64,000 nt of DNA from Bacteroidia bacterium (GTDB taxonomy: Bacteria > Bacteroidota > Bacteroidia > M30B66), in assembly GCA_965279035.1 (NCBI GenBank), contig OZ257142.1:2528001-2592000 (forward strand), read 5' to 3'. This document shows positions 33,416 to 46,515 of this stretch, piece after piece. The first letter of the stretch is position 1. Each line of letters opens with the position of its first letter. The notes beneath the pieces are model-generated. The model had not been told where the DNA came from and searched no databases. It saw only the letters and a program-made list of their open reading frames with translations. The position numbers and the translations under genes are program-made.

Positions 33416-35824
33416 ATGAAAACAAACATTTCAAGATTTCCCCAAACACATTATTCGATAATTTTATTTTTCCTACCAATTTTCTTGTTTTTATTTTCTT
33501 CAAGAATTTCGGCTCAAGGACTCACACAAACAATTCGTGGAACGGTTAGCGATGCCGCATCACAGAGTCCTATTCCTGGTGCAATGGTCATATTAGTTGA
33601 TTCGAAACCGCTTGTTGGAGCATCAACCGATATCAATGGAAATTTCCGTTTAGAATCAATTCCAATTGGACGTCCCGTAATACAAATTAGTATGATGGGA
33701 TATCAACCCATTAAACTCAGCAACCTTGTACTTTCTTCTTCAAAAGAACTCATATTGAATATTAGCTTAGAATCAGCAGCTATACAAGGAAAAGAAGTGG
33801 AAATCGTTGCTAAAATCGATAAGGATAAACCATTAAATGAATTATCGAGCGTAAGTGCCAGAACCTTTTCTGTTGATGAAGCACAACGATATGCAGGTAG
33901 TTTCGGCGATCCTGCTCGATTAGCTACCAGTTTTGCTGGTGTAGTTGCTGGGAATGATCAACGTAACGACATTGTTGTTCGTGGAAATACGCCTCTTGGT
34001 GTCCTTTGGCGTTTAGAAGGAATCGACATTCCAAGCCCTAGTCACTATAGTGGAGCTGGTACAAGTGGTGGTGCTGTATCCATTTTAAATACTAACGTAT
34101 TAGCCAATAGTGATTTCTTATCTGGAGCTTATGCTGCCGAATATGGTAACGCAACCTCTGCGGCATTCGATGTTAAAATGCGAAAAGGCAATAATGAAAA
34201 ACACGAATTTACTGGTCAAATTGGATTCAATGGTTTTGAACTCGGTGCGGAAGGCCCCTTATCTAAAAACAAAAAATCATCTTTCCTTATTAATTATCGC
34301 TATTCTACACTAGGAGCATTTAATGCCGTAGGGATTGAATTTGTTAAAGGTGGAGTTCCAAAGTATCAAGATATAAGTATGAAACTTCACTTCCAACATC
34401 AAAATGGATATACCAGTTTATTTGGAATTGCAGGAACAAGCGACATTCATTTTGTTTCTGAAAAAGACAGCCTAATTTGGATAAAGGATCCTGCTAAACG
34501 TCAAGATCTAAAGAATGGATCTGATATGGCTGTTCTAGGTATAACACATGTTCACTTTTTAAGTAGTAAAACGAGTTTGCGTGGAACAGTGGCTGCAACA
34601 GGAAATCGTTTTCGCACATCGGTAGATTCGATATCTCCTTCATATAATTTCCTCGATAATTTTAGAAGCAAGATGACCGAAAGTAAAATAATCGGAACGC
34701 TTGTCTTGAATAATCGCATAAATTCTAAAACAACATTACGTTCAGGAATCATTATAAGTCACTTAATGTATAATAGCAATGTCAATCAATTTTCAGCAAC
34801 ATTAAACGCTCGTCAACAACTTATCGATTTTAAAGGAAATGGTGATCTCATACAGGGATATGCACAATGGCATTATAAAGCAGGATTACGTTGGACATTT
34901 GATTTGGGTTTGCATGCACTTCACTATTATGTAAATAATAAAAGTTCAATTGAACCAAGAGCCTCCATAAGTTTTCAAGCTACTGGAAATCAACGAATCA
35001 GTTTAGGATATGGAAATCATAGTCGTGTTTTACCCATTACTATTTATTTGAGAGAAACCCAATTAGCCGATGGTAGCACAATTCAAACGAATAAAAACTT
35101 GGATTTACTACGTTCGAATCATTTTGTTGTAGGATACGATTGGTTAATTCGTGAGCATTTGCGCTTAAAAGCTGAAATCTATTACCAGCAACAATACAAT
35201 GTTGGTATTCATGAAGGAAATTCATCCAGTTTATCGGTGTTAAATTATGGAGCTAATTTCGGGGATGTTATTGGGCCAGACAGCCTAGTTTCAAAAGGAA
35301 AAGGATTTAATAAAGGAATAGAAATAACACTCGAAAAATTCTTTCACAAAAATTACTATTTCTTAATGACAGCAAGCCTTTATGATAGTAAATATCAAGG
35401 TTCTGATGGTATCGAACGAAATACCGCATTCAATAATAAATATGCGTTCAATCTTTTAGCAGGAAAAGAAATTCCTCTTGGAAAGAACAAACAAAATGTC
35501 CTTGTACTAAGTTTTCGACAAGTAATTACAGGTGGAATGTGGACTACGCCAATAAATATAGAAGCCTCTCAACAAAAGGGATATGAAATTAGAAATGAAC
35601 AATTAGCCTACTCTGAACAATTGCCTGGTTATTTTAGAACAGATATACGTATAGGATTTCGAAGGAATAAAAAGAAAATTACTGAAGAGTATGGACTTGA
35701 TTTTCAAAATCTAACGAATCAGAAAAACATTTTTAGTCGATCATATAATAATTTGTCTAAAAAAATAGAGAACAACTATCAAGTAGGGATTTTTCCAATG
35801 TTGCTTTATAGAATTAATTTCTAA
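33416..35824 (+). CDS. TonB-dependent receptor with carboxypeptidase-regulatory-like N-terminal domain
   Basis: Signal peptide, IRGTVSD..P IPGA, plug (GDPARL..FAGV, NDIVVRG), C-terminal aromatic YRINF. Confidence 0.92.
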   Translation: MKTNISRFPQTHYSIILFFLPIFLFLFSSRISAQGLTQTIRGTVSDAASQSPIPGAMVILVDSKPLVGASTDINGNFRLESIPIGRPVIQISMMGYQPIKLSNLVLSSSKELILNISLESAAIQGKEVEIVAKIDKDKPLNELSSVSARTFSVDEAQRYAGSFGDPARLATSFAGVVAGNDQRNDIVVRGNTPLGVLWRLEGIDIPSPSHYSGAGTSGGAVSILNTNVLANSDFLSGAYAAEYGNATSAAFDVKMRKGNNEKHEFTGQIGFNGFELGAEGPLSKNKKSSFLINYRYSTLGAFNAVGIEFVKGGVPKYQDISMKLHFQHQNGYTSLFGIAGTSDIHFVSEKDSLIWIKDPAKRQDLKNGSDMAVLGITHVHFLSSKTSLRGTVAATGNRFRTSVDSISPSYNFLDNFRSKMTESKIIGTLVLNNRINSKTTLRSGIIISHLMYNSNVNQFSATLNARQQLIDFKGNGDLIQGYAQWHYKAGLRWTFDLGLHALHYYVNNKSSIEPRASISFQATGNQRISLGYGNHSRVLPITIYLRETQLADGSTIQTNKNLDLLRSNHFVVGYDWLIREHLRLKAEIYYQQQYNVGIHEGNSSSLSVLNYGANFGDVIGPDSLVSKGKGFNKGIEITLEKFFHKNYYFLMTASLYDSKYQGSDGIERNTAFNNKYAFNLLAGKEIPLGKNKQNVLVLSFRQVITGGMWTTPINIEASQQKGYEIRNEQLAYSEQLPGYFRTDIRIGFRRNKKKITEEYGLDFQNLTNQKNIFSRSYNNLSKKIENNYQVGIFPMLLYRINF

Positions 35825-35838
35825 TCAATTATTTTGTG

Positions 35839-36510
35839 ATGAAAACACTTCATACATTTTTGTTAATTCTTCACGTTGCAGGAGGAATGACGGGACTCAT
35901 AACAGGTCTATTAAATATCAGTAATAAAAAAGGAAAACAATTCCATAGGCTCATAGGTAAAATATATGTTGGAGGAATGTTTACTGCCACATTGAGTGGT
36001 ACTGTTTTAGCTGCTTTCGGGGGAAATCATTTTCTGTTTTTAATCGGAATATTCAGTTTTTACCTAGCATTTTCGGGTTTACGTACAATTCAACATAAAA
36101 TGTTCAACGGTGTTATCCATTATGCTTTAATAGATAAACTAGTTGCAGGATTGACGGGGATTTTCGGTGCATTGATGATTGTAACTGGAATAATCCAACC
36201 CGATGGAATATCGAAAATGACTATTCCAATATTATTAGTTTTTGGTAGTATCAGTTTGATGTTTTCTCTTGGTGATTTATCACTATTTATGGGTATTAGG
36301 AAATTAAAGGATATTAAAAATCGTTGGTTTTTTAATCATATTGGTCGAATGATTGGATCCTATATTTCGGCGGTTACAGCATTCTTAGTTGTTAATTTAG
36401 ATAATTTACTTCCTCCATTAATTATTTGGTTGGGTCCTACAGTAATAGGTTCCATATTGATATCAGTATTTACAACATATTATAAACGTAAATTTGCTTC
36501 TGGTAAATAA
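35839..36510 (+). CDS. DUF2306-like membrane protein
   Basis: ILHV.GG, KKG..HR.IGKIY, HIGRMIGSYI; ~6-7 TMs. Confidence 0.75.
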   Translation: MKTLHTFLLILHVAGGMTGLITGLLNISNKKGKQFHRLIGKIYVGGMFTATLSGTVLAAFGGNHFLFLIGIFSFYLAFSGLRTIQHKMFNGVIHYALIDKLVAGLTGIFGALMIVTGIIQPDGISKMTIPILLVFGSISLMFSLGDLSLFMGIRKLKDIKNRWFFNHIGRMIGSYISAVTAFLVVNLDNLLPPLIIWLGPTVIGSILISVFTTYYKRKFASGK

Positions 36511-36515
36511 TTTAT

Positions 36516-37580
36516 ATGTCTTCTGAATCGAAACATACAATCTTCTCTGGCAGTCGTATCGCGAATATCAAGGATATCCTACTCATGATTTTTGTAGGAG
36601 TTTTGGTTGTCAGTTACATGTTTGTTAAAAATGCAATTCAAGGAAATGAAGCTGAACAAGCACCTGATACTGTAGTTAATAATGCGCTTTTTTCAGTAAG
36701 CATTAGTATTATTTTATATGTAGTTTTTCGGGTGATGTTTCGATATCTGAATATCCATTATCCTTGGTTAAAGTCTATTGGCAAACGTATTTGGATTCAA
36801 TTGGCATTAGTTATCGGTTTATCTTCTTCGATAATGGCCTTATTTACTTGGGTATGGAATAATTTGTTTTTTGAAGGATGTTTTACATTGAGTTCATTCT
36901 TTAGTAATATTATTATTGCCGTAATTGTTTCACTATTAATTAATGCAATTTATGAAGCTGTTAATTTATTTCGTCAATTAAAAGATAGTCAAATTGAAAC
37001 GGAACAACTTAAACGTCAAAATATTGAATCGCATTTTGAGACATTGAAAAATCAAGTTGGACCACATTTTTTATTTAATAGCTTAAATACTTTGCTTGCA
37101 TTAATTGATGAAGATAAAAATCAAGCGAAAGAGTTTGTGAGCAAATTAGCCACGTATTATCGTTATGCATTGCAAGTGAATGAACGTGAAATGGTTGAAA
37201 TGTCTACAGAAATCGAACTAGTAAAGAGTTATGTTTTCTTGCTAGAATCTCGTTTTGGAAAAAACCTTCAAGTGAATTTCAATGTTTCTGATGAATATAA
37301 TAATTATAAAGTGGTTCCTCTCGCAATACAAATGTTGGTCGAGAATGCAGTTAAACACAATGTAATTTCTGAAGCTCACCCATTAATGATTGATATTTTT
37401 ATTCTGGATAATTATCTTGTTGTTAGAAATAACAAGAGAAAGAAAGATGCACTGGAACAAAGTAACCAAATAGGCTTAGGAAATATTAATAATCGATATT
37501 CAATTTTAACGGGTAAAAACATTCAAATTGAGAGTGAATTGGATTCAACATTCAGTGTAAAACTTCCACTGATTGATTAA
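36516..37580 (+). CDS. LytS/YehU-type sensor histidine kinase
   Basis: LKNQVGPHFLFNSLN, QMLVENAVKHN, IGLGNI; 4 N-terminal TMs. Confidence 0.93.
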   Translation: MSSESKHTIFSGSRIANIKDILLMIFVGVLVVSYMFVKNAIQGNEAEQAPDTVVNNALFSVSISIILYVVFRVMFRYLNIHYPWLKSIGKRIWIQLALVIGLSSSIMALFTWVWNNLFFEGCFTLSSFFSNIIIAVIVSLLINAIYEAVNLFRQLKDSQIETEQLKRQNIESHFETLKNQVGPHFLFNSLNTLLALIDEDKNQAKEFVSKLATYYRYALQVNEREMVEMSTEIELVKSYVFLLESRFGKNLQVNFNVSDEYNNYKVVPLAIQMLVENAVKHNVISEAHPLMIDIFILDNYLVVRNNKRKKDALEQSNQIGLGNINNRYSILTGKNIQIESELDSTFSVKLPLID

Positions 37581-37594
37581 TATACTGAATCGGT

Positions 37595-38347
37595 ATGAAA
37601 CGTATTTATATAATAGAAGACGAACCATTGGCAATGAGACGCTTGAGTCGTATGATTCAAGAAATACAACCATATTGGGAAATTGTTGGTCATGCAGATA
37701 GCATTGAAAGTGCTGTTTCATATTTAAAATCCAACAGTAAGCCTGATTTATTATTCATGGATATTCAATTAGCTGATGGAATAAGTTTTAGCATATTTGA
37801 ACAAATTGAGATTAACATACCAGTGATTTTTACAACTGCCTATGATGATTATACATTAAAAGCATTCAAAGTAAATAGTGTAGATTATTTATTAAAACCA
37901 ATTGACTCCATTGAATTGCAAGCTGCAATTTCAAAATTCAATTCAAGATCAATTGAACAAATCCCCAATATTGCAGCATTATTAAGTTCTTTTAATCAAG
38001 AAATAAAGTATCGAAGTCGTTTTTTATTGACTAAAGGCGATTCATTAATTCCAGTTAATACAAATGAAATAGCATGGATTATTGCTGAAGATAAACTAGT
38101 CTTTCTAATGCAAAAATCTGGTGTTAAATCGATTTTCCCTTATACATTAGATGATTTACAAACTCAATTAAATCCTCAAGATTTTTTTCGTATAAACCGA
38201 TCTGTATTGGCTCATCGAAACTGTATTCATAAGGCGGAATTACATTTTAACGGGAAAATTAAAATTCAACTCAATCCTTCATTAGAAACTGATTTATTTG
38301 TAAGTAGAGAAAAAGCTACAAATTTTAAAAATTGGTGGGGGGAATAA
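37595..38347 (+). CDS. LytTR-family response regulator
   Basis: IEDE, MDIQLADG, FTTAYD, DYLLKP receiver; FFRINRS, VSREK LytTR domain. Confidence 0.95.
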   Translation: MKRIYIIEDEPLAMRRLSRMIQEIQPYWEIVGHADSIESAVSYLKSNSKPDLLFMDIQLADGISFSIFEQIEINIPVIFTTAYDDYTLKAFKVNSVDYLLKPIDSIELQAAISKFNSRSIEQIPNIAALLSSFNQEIKYRSRFLLTKGDSLIPVNTNEIAWIIAEDKLVFLMQKSGVKSIFPYTLDDLQTQLNPQDFFRINRSVLAHRNCIHKAELHFNGKIKIQLNPSLETDLFVSREKATNFKNWWGE

Positions 38348-38382: not shown

Positions 38383-39060
38383 TCAATTATTTATTTTCAA
38401 ATAATCCAACAATCCATTTTTCATTACAAAAAGCACCAAACCTGTTTTTGATTTAATAGAGAATTTATTAAAAACTGAATCTCTATAACCATCCACAGTT
38501 CTACGATGAACTCCCATCATATACCCTATTTGCTCATAAGTATATTCTTCTTCATTGCAAACTAATAATAAAAACTCCTTTTCTCTTTTAGTTAGTTGAG
38601 ATAATAAATCCGATTGAGGGTTATTATTAATTAATGAATTTTCATTCCTCAAAGCATGGGCTAATAAGTCATTATGATAGTATCCACGAGTAAAAATATC
38701 ATTTAATGCTTCACCCAAAACGGTTGCAGTACAGTTTTTAGGTAAATAACCTCTTGCTCCAGACCGAAAAAGCTTAATATGTTTATTTTCATCATCATTC
38801 AATGTTAATATTAAAACAGGTATCGAATATCCTCTTGAATTCATCTCATCCAAAACCTGATCTCCATGCATTTCTGGCATCGATAAATCCATAATAATTA
38901 GATCGAAATCAACATTATTTTCAAGATATTTAAGCAAATCAGTTCCTAAATCAAACTCAACTGATATTTCATAAGGACCTATTTTTTCAATAAGCTCTCT
39001 TAAGCCATTTCGGACAACTACATGATCATCAACAAGAATGATTCTTTTCTTAGGCGTCAT
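38383..39060 (-). CDS. NarL/LuxR-family response regulator
   Basis: LVDDH, MDLSMP, GYLPK; HTH YEQIGYMMGVHRRTVDGYRD. Confidence 0.93.
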   Translation of the reverse strand: MTPKKRIILVDDHVVVRNGLRELIEKIGPYEISVEFDLGTDLLKYLENNVDFDLIIMDLSMPEMHGDQVLDEMNSRGYSIPVLILTLNDDENKHIKLFRSGARGYLPKNCTATVLGEALNDIFTRGYYHNDLLAHALRNENSLINNNPQSDLLSQLTKREKEFLLLVCNEEEYTYEQIGYMMGVHRRTVDGYRDSVFNKFSIKSKTGLVLFVMKNGLLDYLKINN

Positions 39061-39844
39061 GATTCACAGTATTTTTAAGAGAAAGGGTTAGTTTAGTTCC
39101 TTTATCAATATTAGATTCAATATGAAGATTCATTTGTGCTAAACTAGCACGTTTAATCATATTATTTAAACCAGATGCCTTTTTAGAATAATTTACCTGG
39201 TCTAATTGAAAACCACATCCATCATCTTCTACTTGAACAAGATAGGTATCAAAATTAAATCGAATAGTAACTGTATTAGCCGCAGAATGCTTAATAGCAT
39301 TATTAATGATTTCTTGAAATATTCGAAATGCCATTAATTGTTGGTTTTTATCTATTTCTAATGAAGAATTGGATTCGCCAACATTAAATTGAATTGACTT
39401 TTTTGATATAATTTTCAATCGATCTACTTCTAATGCAATAGCCTCATACAAATCTAATTGTTGAACAAATTCAGAATTCAACGAACGACTGAGCATTCGA
39501 AGTTGTTCAGAAGCTTGAACAAGGTACTTTTCGATAGGAGTAAATACAGAAACCAAGCTTGGGTCATCTATCTTCTTATTTTCAATTAATAAACGCATAT
39601 AGGTTAATGTATGTCCTACGTTATCATGAATCTCTCTTGAAAAATAATTCATCAATTGCTCACGAACTTCTAATTCAGCATCTCTTAACTCTTTTTCATA
39701 AGCCAACTCTAACTTGGAAATTTGAATGTTCTGAGCTAGTCGTTGCTTATAAGAAACAATTACACTAAATACTACCCCACCAACAAGTAATAAAATGACT
39801 AAAGTAACTCCTAAAATACCTATATAAATTTCATTTGAACTCAT
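39050..39844 (-). CDS. Minimal single-TM HisKA_3 sensor histidine kinase
   Basis: One N-terminal TM, SREIHDNVGH H-box, QEIINNAIKHS, DDGCGF, GLNNM..RA, GT. Confidence 0.92.
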   Translation of the reverse strand: MSSNEIYIGILGVTLVILLLVGGVVFSVIVSYKQRLAQNIQISKLELAYEKELRDAELEVREQLMNYFSREIHDNVGHTLTYMRLLIENKKIDDPSLVSVFTPIEKYLVQASEQLRMLSRSLNSEFVQQLDLYEAIALEVDRLKIISKKSIQFNVGESNSSLEIDKNQQLMAFRIFQEIINNAIKHSAANTVTIRFNFDTYLVQVEDDGCGFQLDQVNYSKKASGLNNMIKRASLAQMNLHIESNIDKGTKLTLSLKNTVNHDA

Positions 39845-40488
39845 TGAGAAATGTATTTTTTATTAAATTTTAGCTCGTAAAAGATGATTATAAATGCAAC
39901 TGATATTAGAAAATAACGGATAATCACAATATTTCTATTTACAATATCGAATAATTCATCAGTCAATTGTAGGTTATTATGCAATAAATATTCTCGACAA
40001 ATAAATAGTGGGGTTACAGCACAAAAATATACAATATGAGCAATTGAAATCAAAATCATTGGGTTCTTAAAAATCGATTTCTCACCATTGGGTTCAATAA
40101 TTATAAACATATTGATTGAACCTATTAAAATGAACCCAATAATCAAAAGATATGTATTAAATACATATATGCTATTCCAATAAAATGAACATAATGCAAA
40201 AATTAAATAAAATAGCATTATTATATTCAGCCTATTATTCCAAGTTCTTTTCTTAAAATAAAGCATAGCACTGCCTCCTAATAGGAGAACCTCAAGAATC
40301 ATATATACATTGTAAATTTCATAATTTGATCCAGTCAATCTTCCATACCATTCAGCATAAAAATCAGTAAGTAAGCTCATTCCCAAATGAATAAAAATTA
40401 ATGAGTATTGTAATTTTATCTTTGGAAGAGAAAGGATTCCAATAGTAAGCCCTAAAAATTGAAATATATAATCTAGAAAAATCCTCAC
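39841..40488 (-). CDS. ~7-TM membrane protein, putative stand-alone sensor subunit
   Basis: Hydrophobic throughout; NYEIYNVYMILE motif; stop overlaps kinase start (ATGA); GTG start. Confidence 0.8.
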   Translation of the reverse strand: MRIFLDYIFQFLGLTIGILSLPKIKLQYSLIFIHLGMSLLTDFYAEWYGRLTGSNYEIYNVYMILEVLLLGGSAMLYFKKRTWNNRLNIIMLFYLIFALCSFYWNSIYVFNTYLLIIGFILIGSINMFIIIEPNGEKSIFKNPMILISIAHIVYFCAVTPLFICREYLLHNNLQLTDELFDIVNRNIVIIRYFLISVAFIIIFYELKFNKKYISQ

Positions 40489-40508
40489 TTAAAATTATTT
40501 ATTAAAAG

Positions 40509-41414
40509 CTATTGAGAAACAGCCCCATTAATAACATTTATCTTTGAACATTTTGTTGGACAAAGCCTATTGAAATTTGCTGCTTTATTAATAAAATTTC
40601 CTTGTGTTGGATTACTCCCCGGCTTTACTACTTCTGAAGTCATTACTATGGAATGTCTGAAATCATCTGAATTAGATGTAAGAGAATGTGACATTGAATA
40701 GAAATAAATATCAGGATGGGCTGTCCCAATATTGTTATTGGCATACAATAAATCAATCAATTGAATTGGAAAAAATGATGATCTTGCATCACTATCTATC
40801 GAAAATGGTTTGAAATTCGTTTCTTTATTATGCTTAATATATATAGAATCTGTATAGCGATTAAATCGTGTGATAGCATCATTTAACTCACTATCATCAT
40901 TATTTATTTTAGTAAGATTACCTCCGACCAATGTATATATATCAAAAACATTGCTTCGTATTAATTCAATAATATTCCCAGAACTTTCTGACAAATCATA
41001 CTCTGTACTAACTTTTAAATCTTGGTAAGCATAAACGGGTACATAATATAATTTAATTTCATTGTTGCTCTCCAATGTATAGTAAATTTTCAAACCTTTA
41101 AAATATTTACCAGTATAATAAGGTCTCATAGCATCAGCCATCGATTTTATATCTTCATATGCTACTTGCTCAACTTGTGTTTTATCAAAAACAGTTGTAT
41201 TAGCTCCATATGCAAAATGATGTTTGAAGGTATCAATACCAGCTATTAAACTATCAAAATGAAATTCATGTACACTGAGATTCAAGGAAATTTCAGTTCC
41301 TGCTTGAATTTGATAGGATTCTTCCTTATCCAAAAAGGACGAATTAGAACTAATTAATTTTCCTGCAATCACAATCGCAAAAGCAACAGTCAATAACAAA
41401 ATTGGATTTTTCAT
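40509..41414 (-). CDS. Secreted hypothetical protein with C-terminal CPxxC motif
   Basis: N-terminal hydrophobic signal; only two Cys, in KAANFNRLCPTKC near the C-terminus; ATG at 41414. Confidence 0.8.
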   Translation of the reverse strand: MKNPILLLTVAFAIVIAGKLISSNSSFLDKEESYQIQAGTEISLNLSVHEFHFDSLIAGIDTFKHHFAYGANTTVFDKTQVEQVAYEDIKSMADAMRPYYTGKYFKGLKIYYTLESNNEIKLYYVPVYAYQDLKVSTEYDLSESSGNIIELIRSNVFDIYTLVGGNLTKINNDDSELNDAITRFNRYTDSIYIKHNKETNFKPFSIDSDARSSFFPIQLIDLLYANNNIGTAHPDIYFYSMSHSLTSNSDDFRHSIVMTSEVVKPGSNPTQGNFINKAANFNRLCPTKCSKINVINGAVSQ

Positions 41415-41747
41415 TTTCAAATATAGTTGAATTCGTTGTTTAGAAAAGAATTTTAAGATTCACCAAATCTTGAAAAATGAATCGAATATAAATAGGGTTC
41501 TTTCATCAAATACATTACGTGTAAAACACCTGTATTCTTTATTAAATCTTTCTATCCCTCGTTATTAAGTAGCAAATGCATATCCTTAACATATAATCAT
41601 TCTATTTCTAATAATCTATCCACATCTAAAACATAAATCATCAATCTTCCATAATTTATATCAACTAAACGAAATACTTTTTCAAGAAAAGTATTTTTAC
41701 AATTGTCTTCAAATACTGTGTATTTTAGTCGAACTAACATCATCATT

Positions 41748-43334
41748 ATGAATAAACTTCACCTTTTTATACAATGCACCATCTGGTTTTCTATCCAATT
41801 AAATGCTCAAAACTTTGAATGGATTCAAACAGATACAATTTTACATAATCTATCAGGTAGCAATCAAGAAATTCCAGTCTTTGCAACTGAAGATGCTGTA
41901 TATCAAGCTCGATTGGACTCGACTAGTTTAATTTATGATCAATATGACTTTGGTAAATGTGTCATTGAAGAAAGAACAAACCAAGGCGAACTAATCTGGC
42001 AATATTCAATTGGTGATTCAGTTTCTGTTCGTGATTTGGTTGTAGATGATTCTGGGAATGTATTTATCGGTGGACTGTTTCTCAAACGTTTCATTTCAGT
42101 TGGCCATACTCCAACGAGTAATACACAAGCAAATCAACCATATAGCTATAACATGTTCCTGTTATGCATTCATCCGAATGGTACATTTAACTGGATTCGA
42201 AATTTGAGTATTGGACTGAATGGATTAGAAAATGAAAAATTAGATGCTCTTGCAATAGATAATCAAAATCGATGCTGGTATGGCTATAATAATTTTGCGA
42301 AAATAAATATTCGTCGAATTAATGCTTTAGGTGAGGATGTTCAAACGTATTTAATTGATAAAGGATTGATTTTAGGTGATATGGATTTTGACAATCAGGG
42401 CAATTTATTTCTCGCTGGTGCTGTAGGAAATGGTCCCTTAACAATCAACTCTACCTCTTATCCAGTACCTTTTTCTTATAATTTTTTTGTCTCTAAAATC
42501 AATGCTTCAGGCCTAAGTGAATGGACCAATTTTTATGAAGATATTTCTTTTCAAACACCCTCTATCGACATTGATCCCGATGGGAATCCCGTTTTTTCAG
42601 CTCAGCTTTTTCAAAGCATGATAGTGGATACGTTTAACCTTGTACATCCTAATTTTGGAAAGGACTTTATTTTAGCAAAACTCAATACAGACGGTGATTT
42701 ACTTTGGGCTCGAAATGTTCCAAACCAACCGGGTCTTGGTAGTTTTGATTTGTCTTCTCGTAAAGCAATTTCTATTGATACGAATGGGCATATTTGGCTA
42801 GCTGGAGAATTAAGTGGAAGTATAGAATTTGAAAACAATCAAAGCCTGTCTTCTGGAGATATACTCAATACAGATCCCGCCTTTATTCAGTTTAATGCAT
42901 CTGGAATTGCAACAAATACAGCACATGGTGGAAGTCGTGCTCATGATTGGAACTGTGGAATGTGCCTAGCTCCCAATGGAGATATGTACTATACTGCCTT
43001 AGTTCATGATACAATCCATTTTGGCCCACTTGAACTACTATTGCCTTCAACCTATACAACAATTTTGGGTAAATGGACAGCCGATTCCACTGCTTCTATA
43101 TTCAGTCCGACCACTCCTTTACTATTCAATCTATTTCCCAATCCTTCCAATGGAATATTAATGCTAAATGGAGGTATAGCCAATCGAACTCGTATTCTCG
43201 ATTTTCAAGGTAGAATTATTCGTGATTTAAATGGAAATTCAGTTTATGATTTAAGCGACTTAGCAGCTGGTTTATATTTCGTTCAAATTTTTGAAAAAGA
43301 GAATGTTGGAGTATATCGCTGGGTAAAATATTGA
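41748..43334 (+). CDS. T9SS type A sorting-domain protein with beta-propeller-like repeats
   Basis: Repeated D..GN...G and F..K.N..G...W motifs; C-terminal LFPNPSNG...DLSDLAAGLYFV; signal peptide from ATG 41748. Confidence 0.88.
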   Translation: MNKLHLFIQCTIWFSIQLNAQNFEWIQTDTILHNLSGSNQEIPVFATEDAVYQARLDSTSLIYDQYDFGKCVIEERTNQGELIWQYSIGDSVSVRDLVVDDSGNVFIGGLFLKRFISVGHTPTSNTQANQPYSYNMFLLCIHPNGTFNWIRNLSIGLNGLENEKLDALAIDNQNRCWYGYNNFAKINIRRINALGEDVQTYLIDKGLILGDMDFDNQGNLFLAGAVGNGPLTINSTSYPVPFSYNFFVSKINASGLSEWTNFYEDISFQTPSIDIDPDGNPVFSAQLFQSMIVDTFNLVHPNFGKDFILAKLNTDGDLLWARNVPNQPGLGSFDLSSRKAISIDTNGHIWLAGELSGSIEFENNQSLSSGDILNTDPAFIQFNASGIATNTAHGGSRAHDWNCGMCLAPNGDMYYTALVHDTIHFGPLELLLPSTYTTILGKWTADSTASIFSPTTPLLFNLFPNPSNGILMLNGGIANRTRILDFQGRIIRDLNGNSVYDLSDLAAGLYFVQIFEKENVGVYRWVKY

Positions 43335-44204: not shown

Positions 44205-44807
44205 TCAAATCGGGCTTGCTACTAATGCTGAATTGCCCAAGACCAAATCCCCTCCTCTTAACCACTCCTGCTCCCTATTTTCAGCAATGATCATGGGCAT
44301 TCGCTTCGCTGAATTATGAATCTGACTCATTAATTCGTTGGCTTCGGTGGTGAGGATGGTGTATGTTTTCAGGATTTCACCGGTTGATTTATCTACCCAT
44401 TCGGTCCACAAGCCAGCAAAGGCAAAGGCTTCCCCATTGGGAACTGTAATTTCAAATTTCTGTTTCTTCTTGCCTTTTTCATCCAGCCACTGCCATTCAT
44501 AAAAGCCATCCGCCAGCACTAAACATCGGTTGTTTGTGATGTTTCGGAAAGAAGGCTTCTCCCCTAGTGTTTCGTAACGGGCATTGAGGGTGTTTTTTCG
44601 AAAACTACTGTCTTTTGCCCAAGCAGGAATAAGTCCCCAATTCAGGAGCTCGATTGTTTGGGGATGCAGATGAGTGATGACGGGCGTTTGAGGATATTGA
44701 AATCCGTTGTAGATGCCGGGTGTGTACTGTTCTTCGTGAAGAAATTCAGCTTTAAATCGAACTTTAAGTTCCTGAGCCGATTTGGATTGCTTGGAGTGAA
44801 AACACAT
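44205..44807 (-). CDS. SOS response-associated peptidase (SRAP/YedK/HMCES family)
   Basis: True start MC (Cys2) at 44807, coupled to the umuC stop (TGATG); WGLIP.W, NAR.ET, RCLV.ADGFYEW, IH...RMP. Confidence 0.93.
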   Translation of the reverse strand: MCFHSKQSKSAQELKVRFKAEFLHEEQYTPGIYNGFQYPQTPVITHLHPQTIELLNWGLIPAWAKDSSFRKNTLNARYETLGEKPSFRNITNNRCLVLADGFYEWQWLDEKGKKKQKFEITVPNGEAFAFAGLWTEWVDKSTGEILKTYTILTTEANELMSQIHNSAKRMPMIIAENREQEWLRGGDLVLGNSALVASPI

Positions 44808-46066
44808 CAGGTATGAATGATAATGATATCGCTCAGTTTGGTGGTGTAGCGGGGCGATAGTTTTTCCTGCTTCATTTTCCACACGCGCTTCTGGTCCTGC
44901 GCTGCGAGCCGAATCTTCTGCTGTCCATACATCGCGTTAATCTTATCGACCGCCGTCATGAGCGGAATGTGAAGAGCGTTGCTATTGTCGAAAAGACGTA
45001 ATTGAGTTTTGTCCTGTGGCGTGAAATCCATCACAAGTACGCCCGCTTTTTTGTAGTGATAACCCTCGCGAAAGATATGCTTCAATGCCTGTTTAGCGAA
45101 TTTGGCGAGTTCAATTCCGGAGTTGGTTGCGAAAGGTAGCTTGACCACGATATTCCGGCTGTATTGGGGTAAATCTTTGCGGTGACCGTTGGTATGAATA
45201 AAGACCATGATGGTATTGCAGCAAGACTTCTGTTTGCGGAGTTTCTCAGCGCAGGAAACCGCGAATGTAGCTACGCGCTCCTCGAGTTCGGCGAGTTTGG
45301 TGTAATTGCGTTCGAAGGAGCGTGTGGTGGCGATATTTTTCTTAGGCTGAACCAGTTCAAGATCGAGTGTGGGCGAGCCTTGCAGATCGTGTTTGAGGCG
45401 TAGGCCGACGATAGACATGTGATGTTGCACCCAGGCATCGTGCAGCTGAGTGAAATCGTAGGCTGTTTTCACACCGATGAGCCGAAGCCGTTTGGCGTGC
45501 TGACGACCAATTCCCCATACATCTTCAATCTGAACCCATTTGAGCGCTTTGATGCGTTTTTCCTCGGTGTTGATGAGGTAGGAACTGCCCGTTTCCTTGG
45601 GAAATTTCTTGGCAATCCGATTGGCAATTTTCGCGAGAGCTTTGGTAGGGGCTATTCCAACACTGACCGGTATTCCAGTCCATTTAGTTACCCGGCGCTG
45701 CATGTCTTTCCCGTATTCCTGCAGATTGAAACGTTCGAAACCTTTGAGTTTGAGGAAGGCTTCGTCGATGCTGTATATTTCGATATCGGGTGTGTATTCG
45801 CCCAGGATGTTCATCACCCGCTGACTCATATCGCCATAGAGCGGGAAATTGGCGGAGAAAACGTGTACCTGATGTTGCACAAACAGCGCTTCGTATTCGA
45901 ATGCTGGGGCGCCCATGGGAATTCCAACGGCTTTGGCTTCGTTGCTGCGGGCAATCACGCAACCGTCGTTGTTCGACAGCACCACAATGGGTTTACCGAT
46001 GAGTTCGGGGCGAAAAACCCGCTCACAGGAAGCGTAAAAGTTGTTGCAATCAATGAGGGCAAACAT
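44807..46066 (-). CDS. umuC: Y-family DNA polymerase V catalytic subunit
   Basis: [27 protein letters not shown]-terminal [14 protein letters not shown]. Confidence 0.95.
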
Positions 46067-46515
46067 TAGAACGATTTAATCACGTGCGTGACGATTCCCC
46101 AGATGAGAAAGTCGTTTTCGGCGGTTACTTGAATGGGTTTGTAGAGTTCGTTGGCGGGCATGAGCCAGCATTCTTTTTTATCGATGCGAATGCGTTTGAT
46201 GGTGAATTCTCCATCGAGGTAACACACGGCAATTTTTCCATCGGCAGGTTGCAGACTTTTATCAATCACAAGCAAATCGCCATCGTTAATACCTTCATCT
46301 TTCATCGATTGACCTTTCACTCGACCGTAGAAGGTGGAAGAAGGATGTTTGATGAGGTGCTTGTTGAGATCGATGGTGAGATCGGTGAAATCCATTGCCG
46401 GCGAGGGAAAGCCCGCGCTAATGCCATCGGAAACGAGGGGCAAATCGAGTGCTGTATCCGAAAGAGCGGAATAGATATCGAGTGTATTGGAAGAATGTAA
46501 TTTGAGAGCAGCCAT
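46066..46515 (-). CDS. umuD: DNA polymerase V accessory subunit (S24 autopeptidase)
   Basis: SAGFPSPA cleavage region, GQSM catalytic Ser, FTIKR Lys; no LexA DNA-binding domain. Confidence 0.94.

Follow-up and report, generated by a model that had tools for sequence, protein, structure and literature searches.

How does a histidine kinase that lacks a sensor domain receive its signal? The question is raised by four co-oriented open reading frames (ORFs), g1 to g4, at positions 38383–41414 on the minus strand of the window, the 64,000-nucleotide stretch of Bacteroidia bacterium contig OZ257142.1 analyzed here (Table 1). The genes are tightly packed, as an earlier note on this DNA had stated: the overlap is 4 nt between g2 and g3 and 11 nt between g3 and g4, and only 20 nt lie between g1 and g2. 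We read them, with moderate confidence, as one operon encoding a multi-component signaling cassette in which a seven-transmembrane (7-TM) protein and a protein with a conserved C-terminal tail provide accessory input to the sensorless kinase. Two-component systems with accessory sensors are a known kind; this one is built from two undescribed protein families.

Table 1. Features of the four-gene locus, with positions in the window and the basis of each assignment.
Feature	Position	Strand	Basis
g1	41420/41414..40509	-	ORF; 301 aa from ATG at 41414, 303 aa from TTG at 41420
C-terminal tail motif ANFNRLCPTKC of g1	40548..40580	-	translation
g2, 215-aa seven-helix membrane protein	39841..40488	-	ORF, hydropathy
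g3, 264-aa single-TM histidine kinase	39050..39844	-	Pfam, hydropathy
g4, 225-aa NarL/FixJ-type response regulator	38383..39060	-	Pfam
Divergent intergenic region, 282 nt, upstream of g1	41421..41702	.	sequence

The kinase g3 is composed of a single N-terminal TM helix, a coiled linker and the HisKA_3 and HATPase_c domains, and has neither an extracytoplasmic nor a cytoplasmic sensor domain. Both catalytic domains score above the Pfam cut-offs (PF07730, 25.3 bits against 24; PF02518, 42.1 bits against 26.4). The best NCBIfam matches of g3 (UhpB, NarQ and LiaS) involve the catalytic core only and fall far under their cut-offs, with 80.2 bits against 408 for UhpB, the best of them, and 45.6 bits against 450 for LiaS. 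The g4 protein combines a receiver domain (PF00072, 83.3 bits) with a GerE/LuxR helix-turn-helix (PF00196, 29.1 bits) and scores 85 bits on the NCBIfam NarL model, below the cut-off of 250. With these domains, g3 and g4 fit a HisKA_3/NarL-type two-component system, and the Pfam and hydropathy results agree with the earlier description of a one-helix kinase without a sensor domain paired with a NarL-type regulator.

The gene before the kinase had been described as a pure ~7-TM protein and indeed encodes six to seven hydrophobic segments in only 215 aa. Its positive-inside count (K+R, 11 versus 3) predicts an N-terminus outside and a C-terminus inside, and K+R on the odd loops and C-terminus exceed those on the even loops in 51/52, 30/34 and 12/13 members of its family. 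The family comprises 80 representative clusters of 96–234 aa; its members, typically put at about 150–234 aa, always stand alone, and a fused 7-TM–kinase form was found in none of the 80. Its nearly invariant residues are N60, E66, Y154, P160, L179, R191 and Y192, with no nearly invariant His or Cys among them. Neither g2 nor 52 family members match Pfam, g2 has no NCBIfam match, and sequence searches of the PDB with the profiles A3 (the g2 alignment) and A5 returned nothing below E 0.067. The ESM Atlas places g2 with unnamed Bacteroidota clusters at 0.93 and with one cluster auto-named YhhN. We rejected a YhhN identity (PF07947): no member among 52 matches with an E-value of 0.01 or lower; PF07947 occurs in five genomes at only one, different, locus and in none of the 7-TM copies; and hhalign of A3 against the YhhN protein of that locus gave 0.6% probability.

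The first gene product, g1, has zero family matches in Pfam and NCBIfam, and its ESM Atlas leads all lie below 0.9. It carries hydrophobic residues near the N-terminus (4–27) and is probably exported or anchored on the periplasmic side. The protein (301 aa in its database copy) has exactly two cysteines, residues 287 and 291, both in the near-terminal ANFNRLCPTKC that had already been singled out from the sequence, and both are kept in all four close relatives. Profile comparison makes it quite probable that g1 is a long-form member of a CPPxC-tail family. The long forms align with the small forms over g1 residues 209–303, tail included (hhalign, 89.9% probability, E 1.7e-6), and g1 residues 107–135 align with a small-form hairpin that is also matched within 209–303 (74.6%). 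The family motif is (aromatic)-(D/N)-x-G/x-x-(L/I/M)-C-P-P-x-C. Its third C-P-P-x-C position is Thr, not Pro, in g1 and likewise at loci L086, L119, L163 and L168. The tail motif is kept in the relatives P0002 and P0003 and in the metagenome relative L177, where it reads AANFTRLCPTNC.

Tails of this type are strongly associated with the position upstream of the 7-TM gene. Of the 86 upstream ORFs, 53 have CPxxC within their final 45 aa, compared with 3 of 359 other ORFs at the same loci (Fisher p 6.5e-42), which confirms the pattern mentioned in the earlier note, that genes ending in CP(P)xC precede membrane protein/kinase pairs in this phylum. Conservation of CPxxC itself is partial: in about one third of the upstream proteins, the tail lacks Cys but retains a Gly...Pro-Pro core. 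CPP appears in the last 45 aa of 3/86, and most of the remaining ORFs end in Gly...Pro-Pro. A broader screen found five ORFs with such a tail outside the upstream set, four of which are further family members. The motif lies 0–25 residues from the C-terminus, some proteins stop exactly at the motif Pro, and it is common to proteins that are otherwise <20% identical. As a third component of the cassette, the first gene is genuine and conserved.

The proteins that carry these tails are 100–370 aa long and share a conserved small alpha/beta domain of ~100 aa, modeled in a small form with a pLDDT of 80.1. An additional Cys occurs in many small forms, in a ...PG-C-xG(I/L)R... strand. The AlphaFold2 model of g1 itself, built from 3 sequences, is unusable (pLDDT 35.6). 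Foldseek comparison of the small-form model with the PDB gave no significant match. We do not claim a PAS-like fold for the small forms, as the best hits, LOV/PAS domains, reached only E 0.13 and a TM-score <=0.25. An N-terminal export signal is absent from 51/86 upstream proteins, and the other 35/86 have a hydrophobic or lipoprotein-like N-terminus (Sec or lipoprotein-type), so that a puzzle arises from the identical tail type on proteins with and without export signals. Among HisKA_3 cassettes, the proteins without a signal have 25 Cys-type and 20 Cys-free tails and those with a signal have 8 and 9, respectively; thus, Cys content is independent of the predicted compartment.

We sampled 401 Bacteroidota genomes and found members of the 7-TM family in 72 of them, with as many as 6 copies in a single genome. 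The next same-strand ORF was sought for 99 copies at 90 loci. It encodes a g3-like single-TM kinase in 67, a tandem 7-TM copy in 7 and another protein in 18, with nothing found in 7. Three of the 18 other ORFs were compared with Pfam, and all three are PAS+HisKA+HATPase kinases with one N-terminal TM helix each. The tail protein accompanies the 7-TM gene before either class of kinase. A converse count in five genomes, starting from the kinases, found a 7-TM family gene beside 17 of 21 short g3-like ones. The stand-alone family, its place before two kinase classes and these 17 kinases support the earlier proposal of a polytopic partner separate from a sensorless kinase. Tandem arrays of 2–3 7-TM genes precede one kinase at L116, L126, L154, L157 and L159. 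The arrangement that we define as the cassette, a 7-TM gene directly upstream of a single-helix kinase gene, with a tail protein upstream and a regulator, is present in the window, and L177 has the same four genes amid different flanking genes.

Identity between the window and L177 is 41% for g1, 46% for g2, 65% for g3 and 76% for g4. The same order emerges from mean pairwise identities across 51 complete cassettes (upstream protein, 0.18; 7-TM protein, 0.19; kinase, 0.27; regulator, 0.37), and these alignments identify the input-side proteins of the g1 and g2 types as the fastest to diverge. Between the window and L177, g1 residues 271–300 are 57% identical compared with 41% over the whole protein; by this comparison, the tail ranks with the more conserved regions of g1 and is not hypervariable. 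All distance matrices of the four proteins are correlated in the 51 cassettes (0/300 permutations reach the observed value). Such correlated divergence, which the earlier note proposed to score, would arise between linked genes in any case and is no proof that the proteins interact.

These observations are consistent with sensing in trans. The g3 kinase is a bare transmitter, with one membrane helix and almost nothing outside the membrane, whose HisKA_3/HATPase core would phosphorylate g4. The 7-TM protein and its conserved-tail partner probably supply the sensing that the kinase lacks. In this arrangement, g2 would most likely contact the single helix of g3 within the membrane and set kinase activity. 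The cue may be read in a pocket lined by the conserved polar cluster N60, E66, Y154, R191 and Y192 of g2, predicted to sit largely in that half of the helix bundle which faces the periplasm, and g1 may sense jointly with the 7-TM/kinase pair or modulate it. By analogy with LiaF, an accessory membrane protein of the inhibitor or scaffold type, the 7-TM protein could also have one of these roles instead of being the sensor. We tested by loop charge if the 7-TM partners of signal-less upstream proteins have an inverted topology and found none, the charge pattern being the same in both groups. The same tail with and without an export signal, together with the same 7-TM topology, rules out one docking face shared by all systems. 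An exception would be signal-less tail proteins that are exported by some unknown route. Complex prediction for g2 (profile A3) and g1 residues 205–303 (profile A6) gave no answer (score of 0.00), which counts neither for nor against contact.

The position of g1 at the head of the operon could also mean that it is an output: an effector or stress protein that shares a transcript with its own regulators, which might also induce it, leaving sensing to the 7-TM protein and kinase only. LiaI and LiaH sit upstream of liaFSR. In the window, g1 follows a 282-nt region with a perfect 10-nt inverted repeat (41672–41696). No conserved target genes were seen beside the cassettes, suggesting that the operon may be its own main target, and variable localization (51 proteins without and 35 with a signal) is easier to reconcile with an effector than with a docking partner. 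We nevertheless consider an output role unlikely. The tail protein/7-TM pair stays intact before two unrelated kinase classes, HisKA_3 and PAS-HisKA, which ties g1 to the 7-TM protein and not to a particular regulator. Furthermore, the g1-type proteins match the 7-TM protein in speed of divergence, as is usual for sensing parts, and their fold has no significant match to solved structures, known stress proteins included (Foldseek E 0.13).

Somewhat less probable still is an Agr/ComQXPA-type circuit in which the 7-TM protein cuts, and perhaps cyclizes via Cys, the CPxxC segment of g1 for release and sensing by the 7-TM/kinase pair. The order of a precursor-like gene, a ~200-aa polytopic protein, a kinase and a regulator resembles agrBDCA and comQXPA, and the 51/86 upstream proteins without a Sec signal recall AgrD and ComX. 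Rapid divergence of the upstream and 7-TM proteins and a motif 0–25 residues from the C-terminus, with some proteins finishing at its Pro, also suit a processed precursor. However, the tail is well conserved and not hypervariable (the 57% versus 41% identity noted above), its motif is shared by proteins <20% identical elsewhere, and the upstream proteins have a folded domain of ~100 aa (pLDDT 80.1) instead of a short leader. The tail Cys is missing in about one third of the proteins and Sec or lipoprotein-type signals are present in 35/86. Moreover, no His or Cys is nearly invariant in the 7-TM family, which has no Pfam match either, AgrB included, and g3 has no polytopic receptor domain. The earlier suggestions of a disulfide-closed or processed peptide ligand supplied by the first gene and of a quorum-sensing-like circuit are not supported as stated (Cys-free third, 51/86 without an export signal, conserved tail, folded domain), although the tail may yet be processed. 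We assign a similarly low likelihood to a broader proposal, in which the CPPxC/Pro-Pro tail would be a recognition or processing tag and a new 7-TM receptor family would signal laterally to single-pass kinases, in a GPCR-like manner. If so, Bacteroidota would own a protein- or peptide-based signaling system, tandem arrays of 2–3 receptor genes before one kinase would let several cues converge, and release of the tail would make it a peptide quorum-sensing system in this phylum.

Least probable is a thiol or metal switch, in which the two CPxxC cysteines of g1, joined by a third in many small forms, would sense redox or bind Cu/Zn and inform the 7-TM/kinase pair: the pair provides the only Cys of g1 and is kept in all four close relatives, CPxxC recurs in 53/86 family members, the ...PG-C-xG(I/L)R... 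strand adds a Cys in many small forms, and the C-x3-C motifs of Sco-type proteins bind copper, but about one third of the tails keep the Gly...Pro-Pro core without Cys, Cys content does not follow the predicted compartment (25/20 versus 8/9), and thioredoxin, Sco and other Pfam families give no match. The periplasmic redox-sensing partner entertained earlier is weakened by the same Cys-free third and by the 51/86 proteins without an export signal.

The preferred reading, accessory input to a sensorless kinase, has partial precedents. In the UhpABC system of Escherichia coli, the polytopic UhpC senses and controls the HisKA_3-type UhpB, which acts on the NarL-type UhpA. The cassette likewise has a separate polytopic membrane protein, a HisKA_3 kinase and a NarL-type regulator. 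However, UhpC is a 12-helix MFS transporter homologue and the N-terminus of UhpB is polytopic, whereas here a 215-aa 7-TM protein is the partner of a single-helix kinase; furthermore, the Uhp system has no g1 counterpart. Membership in UhpABC was rejected, as g2 has no MFS match and g3 falls far short of the UhpB cut-off (80.2 bits against 408).

Minimally anchored, intramembrane-sensing HisKA_3 kinases that depend on an adjacent membrane protein of the same operon, with output through a NarL-type regulator, are known from LiaFSR and VraTSR. These systems share with the cassette the minimal anchor, the neighboring membrane protein and extra first genes in the operon, but they come from Firmicutes, and LiaF is an inhibitor that lacks the 7-TM architecture. 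LiaFSR membership was also rejected, based on the LiaS score (45.6 bits, cut-off 450) and the lack of Pfam or NCBIfam matches to g2. Another pairing of a kinase with an accessory membrane protein is SpdC–WalK of Staphylococcus aureus (PMC5854430).

The operon logic of a precursor-like gene, a membrane protein, a kinase and a regulator, and a conserved Cys or modified residue, are shared with Agr and ComQXPA. ComP and ComA are of the HisKA_3 and NarL types, AgrD and ComX are peptides of ~46–55 aa, and AgrC and ComP have polytopic sensor domains. In contrast, g3 has one helix, g1-type proteins are folded and 100–370 aa long, and their tail is conserved, not strain-variable. Membership in ComQXPA was rejected because g3 has one helix, g1 and g2 have no Pfam match and hence no polyprenyl synthase that could stand for the ComQ isoprenyl transferase is present, and g1 has 301–303 aa. 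Agr was rejected because g2 and 52 relatives have no Pfam match and no nearly invariant His or Cys, and the regulator is of the GerE type, not LytTR. 7TMR-DISM and similar 7-TM sensor modules are fused to the kinase and usually have an extracellular domain. They resemble g2 as ~200-aa seven-helix modules associated with histidine kinases in Bacteroidota and elsewhere; unlike them, the g2 family is never fused (0/80 clusters) and has no Pfam match.

For sensorless two-component kinases, the signal source thus seems to be encoded next door, by two families absent from curated libraries. Neither the motif nor the 7-TM family nor the cassette is described in the portions of text that the literature search covered, although a supplementary table may mention them, and CPPxC turned up there only in connection with a polyphosphatase probe. 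The presence of the 7-TM family in 72/401 genomes, often in several copies, implies that a substantial share of Bacteroidota signaling now carries the labels 'hypothetical protein' and 'sensor histidine kinase'. The cassette could reveal a new coupling of a 7-TM receptor to a kinase, and its compactness (four genes, short proteins and a sharp C-terminal motif) makes it genetically easy to test.

A scan for sigma-70-type promoters found 22 sites compared with 25.1 expected, not above chance, and 0 terminator-like sites; the Bacteroidota-type TAnnTTTG motif was not detected upstream of g1. The AT-rich block reported earlier is real, with a GC content of 0.26–0.30 over 38.0–42.0 kb, but it is not operon-specific, since GC is ~0.26–0.31 over all of 35.5–42 kb.

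The finding of the earlier note is real and broader than its reader could know: the four genes form a compact signalling cassette that is common in Bacteroidota, and in which two undescribed protein families are arranged around an ordinary HisKA_3/NarL (or PAS-HisKA) core. The description of the genes, designated g1 (tail protein), g2 (7-TM protein), g3 (histidine kinase) and g4 (NarL-type regulator), was correct throughout. They run head to tail in the order g1-g2-g3-g4, with a gap of 20 nt between g1 and g2 and overlaps of 4 nt (g2/g3) and 11 nt (g3/g4), as expected of the four co-oriented, packed genes first reported. Pfam assigns HisKA_3 and HATPase_c to g3 and Response_reg and GerE to g4; g1 and g2 have zero matches in Pfam and likewise in NCBIfam. 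Hydropathy and Pfam also agree with the claim of a kinase with one TM and no sensor domain, a single N-terminal hydrophobic helix being all that precedes the phospho-acceptor domain of g3. The 215 residues of g2 contain six to seven hydrophobic segments, close to the seven proposed. The N-terminus of g1 is hydrophobic, and its only cysteines (287 and 291) are indeed near-terminal, within ANFNRLCPTKC. The block is AT-rich (GC of 0.26-0.30 in the operon), though the whole region from about 35.5 to 42 kb is equally so.

Positions of the operon and of neighbouring features in the window
Feature	Position	Strand	Remarks
g1	41420 (TTG) or 41414 (ATG) to 40509	-	ORF
g2	40488 to 39841	-	ORF
g3	39844 to 39050	-	ORF
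g4	39060 to 38383	-	ORF
Inverted repeat AAATACTTTT/AAAAGTATTT	41672-41696		Perfect, 10 nt, 5-nt spacer; divergent intergenic region between g1 and beta-propeller gene
T9SS-tailed beta-propeller gene	41703-43334		Divergent to g1
Second signalling unit	33416-38347	+	Converging on operon
SRAP (SOS-response-associated peptidase), IMS/UmuC-type Y-family polymerase and Peptidase_S24 (UmuD/LexA-like) genes	44205-46515	-	

Searched exhaustively with HMMER, 1.84 billion representatives yielded 80 clusters of the 7-TM family at E 0.001 or better, none of them (0/80) fused to a kinase, since every cluster has just 96-234 amino acids. Pfam at E 0.01 or better matched none of 52 aligned members, three single chance-level matches aside. 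Identity with YhhN, to which the ESM Atlas pointed, was rejected on testing. Of 401 genomes spread evenly over the phylum, 72 have the family by a profile of the 52 aligned members; a single genome has as many as six copies, and some copies form tandem arrays. Counts of lysine and arginine in the loops of 100 aligned members assign the C-terminus and the odd loops to the inner side in 51/52, 30/34 and 12/13 members of three groups, and do so for g2 of the window as well, which predicts an outer N-terminus and an inner C-terminus. Residues N60, E66, Y154, P160, L179, R191 and Y192 are nearly invariant. Placed by hydropathy boundaries rather than by a structure, most of them would lie in the last outer loop and in that half of helices 3, 6 and 7 which faces the periplasm.

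The neighbours of the 7-TM genes were surveyed in 90 loci (30 initial and 60 around further matches of the same list, by order of E-value) holding 99 ORFs of the family. The next ORF on the same strand was a g3-like kinase in 67 of the 99, with one hydrophobic stretch near the N-terminus and, immediately after it, a basic stop-transfer and coiled segment. Elsewhere it was a different ORF (18), a second 7-TM copy (7) or none was found (7); at least two of these last (L090 and L105) are high-GC loci in which the neighbour rule missed an over-long kinase ORF. Three of the 18 different ORFs, scanned with Pfam (L091, L101 and L102), are PAS + HisKA + HATPase_c kinases, and most of the remainder, judged by eye only, have one helix followed by ...SE(R/Q)KYRNLFE...; one is a second g1-like gene. 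The 7-TM family therefore precedes single-helix kinases from two unrelated classes. In the reverse survey, which started from the kinase, g3 had 36 matches (E 1e-8 or better) in five genomes, 15 in the long reading frames (545-1811 aa) of sensor-bearing kinases and 21 in short kinases. Sixteen of the short kinases adjoin a 7-TM match, and so does a seventeenth (L172), whose 7-TM neighbour matches at E 3.2e-11. The four short kinases lacking a 7-TM neighbour have several hydrophobic segments (L171) or a single helix (L173), or are soluble (L174 and L175). At L116, L126, L136, L154, L157 and L159, two or three tandem 7-TM genes stand ahead of one kinase, which suggests several receptors feeding one transmitter.

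Of 86 upstream ORFs (7-TM copies left out), 53 contain CPxxC in the final 45 residues and another 3 contain CPP there. An alignment of the tails on this motif gives the consensus (aromatic)-(D/N)-x-(G/S/T)-x-(L/I/M)-C-P-P-x-C, to which D-x-x-S-E/P-L is often added. As a control, a C-terminal CPxxC is present in 3 of 359 complete ORFs from elsewhere in these loci (Fisher p 6.5e-42), and a broader screen of ORFs not in the upstream set gave five such tails, 4/5 in further copies of the tail family. Between roughly a quarter and a third of the upstream proteins have Cys-free tails instead (e.g., ...DPMNYGNIGRPP..., ...YDLGGLQP and ...LNHGVLNP), several with proline as the last residue. The small forms of the family (about 100-180 aa) share a domain with a helix, ...F...(I/L)L.Q.G-C.G(I/L)R.YYG and then ...LVLVGVD..G.D. 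AlphaFold2 modelled one of them (L121, 110 aa, 55-sequence alignment) as a small alpha/beta domain (pLDDT 80.1), for which the PDB gave nothing significant in searches with either structure or sequence. A profile search yielded 435 clusters from sources including Flavobacterium species and Bacteroidota and Ignavibacteria-type MAGs, none with a Pfam domain and all 'hypothetical' except for a few JGI 'PPK2' labels. The name 'polyphosphate kinase 2 (PPK2 family)' on P0173, P0184, P0189-P0191 and P0196 looks like a carried-over misannotation, because these proteins have 98-143 aa and no Pfam domain.

The g1 protein is a long form, which aligns with other long upstream proteins (among them L081, L082, L083, L086 and L165) not just in the tail but over several further blocks. 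Comparison of the long-form and small-form profiles pairs residues 209-303 of g1, tail included, with the small forms (89.9% probability, E 1.7e-6). Residues 107-135 match the same small-form hairpin at 74.6%, so that g1 may contain two copies of the domain. Extra tail-family genes (L110, 125-490, minus strand; L121, 3693-4127, plus; L125, 2044-2442, plus) are positioned downstream of the kinase, after the 7-TM gene or about 490 nt upstream; the gene order of the cassette is therefore not absolutely fixed.

A metagenome contig (L177) preserves the gene order g1-g2-g3-g4, with overlaps of 4 nt, amid flanking genes that are unrelated. The C-terminus of its g1 is AANFTRLCPTNC, and identity to the window is 41% for g1, 46% for g2, 65% for g3 and 76% for g4; the most conserved blocks of g1 are 211-240 (70%) and 271-300 (57%). 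Across 51 complete HisKA_3 cassettes, mean pairwise identity is 0.18 for the upstream protein, 0.19 for the 7-TM protein, 0.27 for the kinase and 0.37 for the regulator. The distance matrices correlate in every pairing (Spearman 0.20-0.71; observed value reached in 0/300 permutations). Linkage alone would give such a correlation, and the informative part is the divergence gradient. Input modules usually diverge fastest, a pattern that the two unannotated proteins fit. We lean slightly towards a joint mechanism in which g3 would be a bare transmitter, g2 would control it through contact inside the membrane in response to a cue sensed by its own conserved polar cluster, g1 would belong to the input as a co-evolving accessory, and g4 would be the output. 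That g1 is instead an effector is unlikely, its rapid divergence being more in the manner of an input.

In the two-component systems UhpC-UhpB-UhpA and LiaF-LiaS-LiaR, the membrane sensor or modulator is encoded by a gene of its own. SpdC is reported in such a role with the kinase WalK (PMC5854430). The cassette follows the logic of all three; membership in any of them fails on the defining proteins. Agr and ComQXPA have their gene order in common with the cassette but not their parts. The quorum-sensing reading proposed earlier, in which an Agr/Com-like processed peptide would be the signal, is possible but a minority view at present, and we regard it as unlikely. No description of the motif or of the cassette was found in the literature searched at the level of titles and the openings of abstracts.

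The upstream proteins differ in their export signals. The N-terminus is hydrophobic or lipoprotein-type, as in g1, in 35 of 86 and neither in 51. Counted per locus, 17 HisKA_3 cassettes have a signal and 45 have none; the PAS-type cassettes number 14 and 4, respectively. Both Cys-type and Cys-free tails are present among signal-bearing and signal-less proteins, and the predicted topology of the 7-TM partner is unaffected by the signal. Thus, barring an unknown export route, one conserved tail cannot dock on a single receptor face in all systems. The same distribution speaks against g1 acting purely in the periplasm through disulfide or redox chemistry, and a thiol or metal switch has the slimmest chance of the readings considered.

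The MnmE encoded in the window shares no more than 56% identity with the MnmE of the species representatives searched, with the best matches in Flavobacteriales and other Bacteroidota, and Pfam finds a T9SS sorting domain on the gene adjoining the operon; by these sequences, the host is a member of the Bacteroidota without a close sequenced relative in the collection searched. The contig L041, which carries the label of an uncultured Acidimicrobiia MAG, encodes an MnmE with 52% identity to that of the window, a value comparable with those of the Bacteroidota matches; the contig may be mis-binned. The inverted repeat upstream of g1 could be an operator for g4, because its half-site TACTTTT resembles the NarL heptamer. 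The converging signalling unit encodes a CarboxypepD_reg-domain outer-membrane-type protein (802 aa), a DUF2306 membrane protein, a LytS-type His_kinase (PF06580, 354 aa) and a LytTR response regulator; 36 nt separate the end of this regulator gene from the g4 stop. On the other side, the genes for SRAP, the Y-family polymerase and Peptidase_S24 are a mutagenesis/SOS cassette with a composition unlike that of its neighbours (GC 0.43-0.50, richer than theirs).
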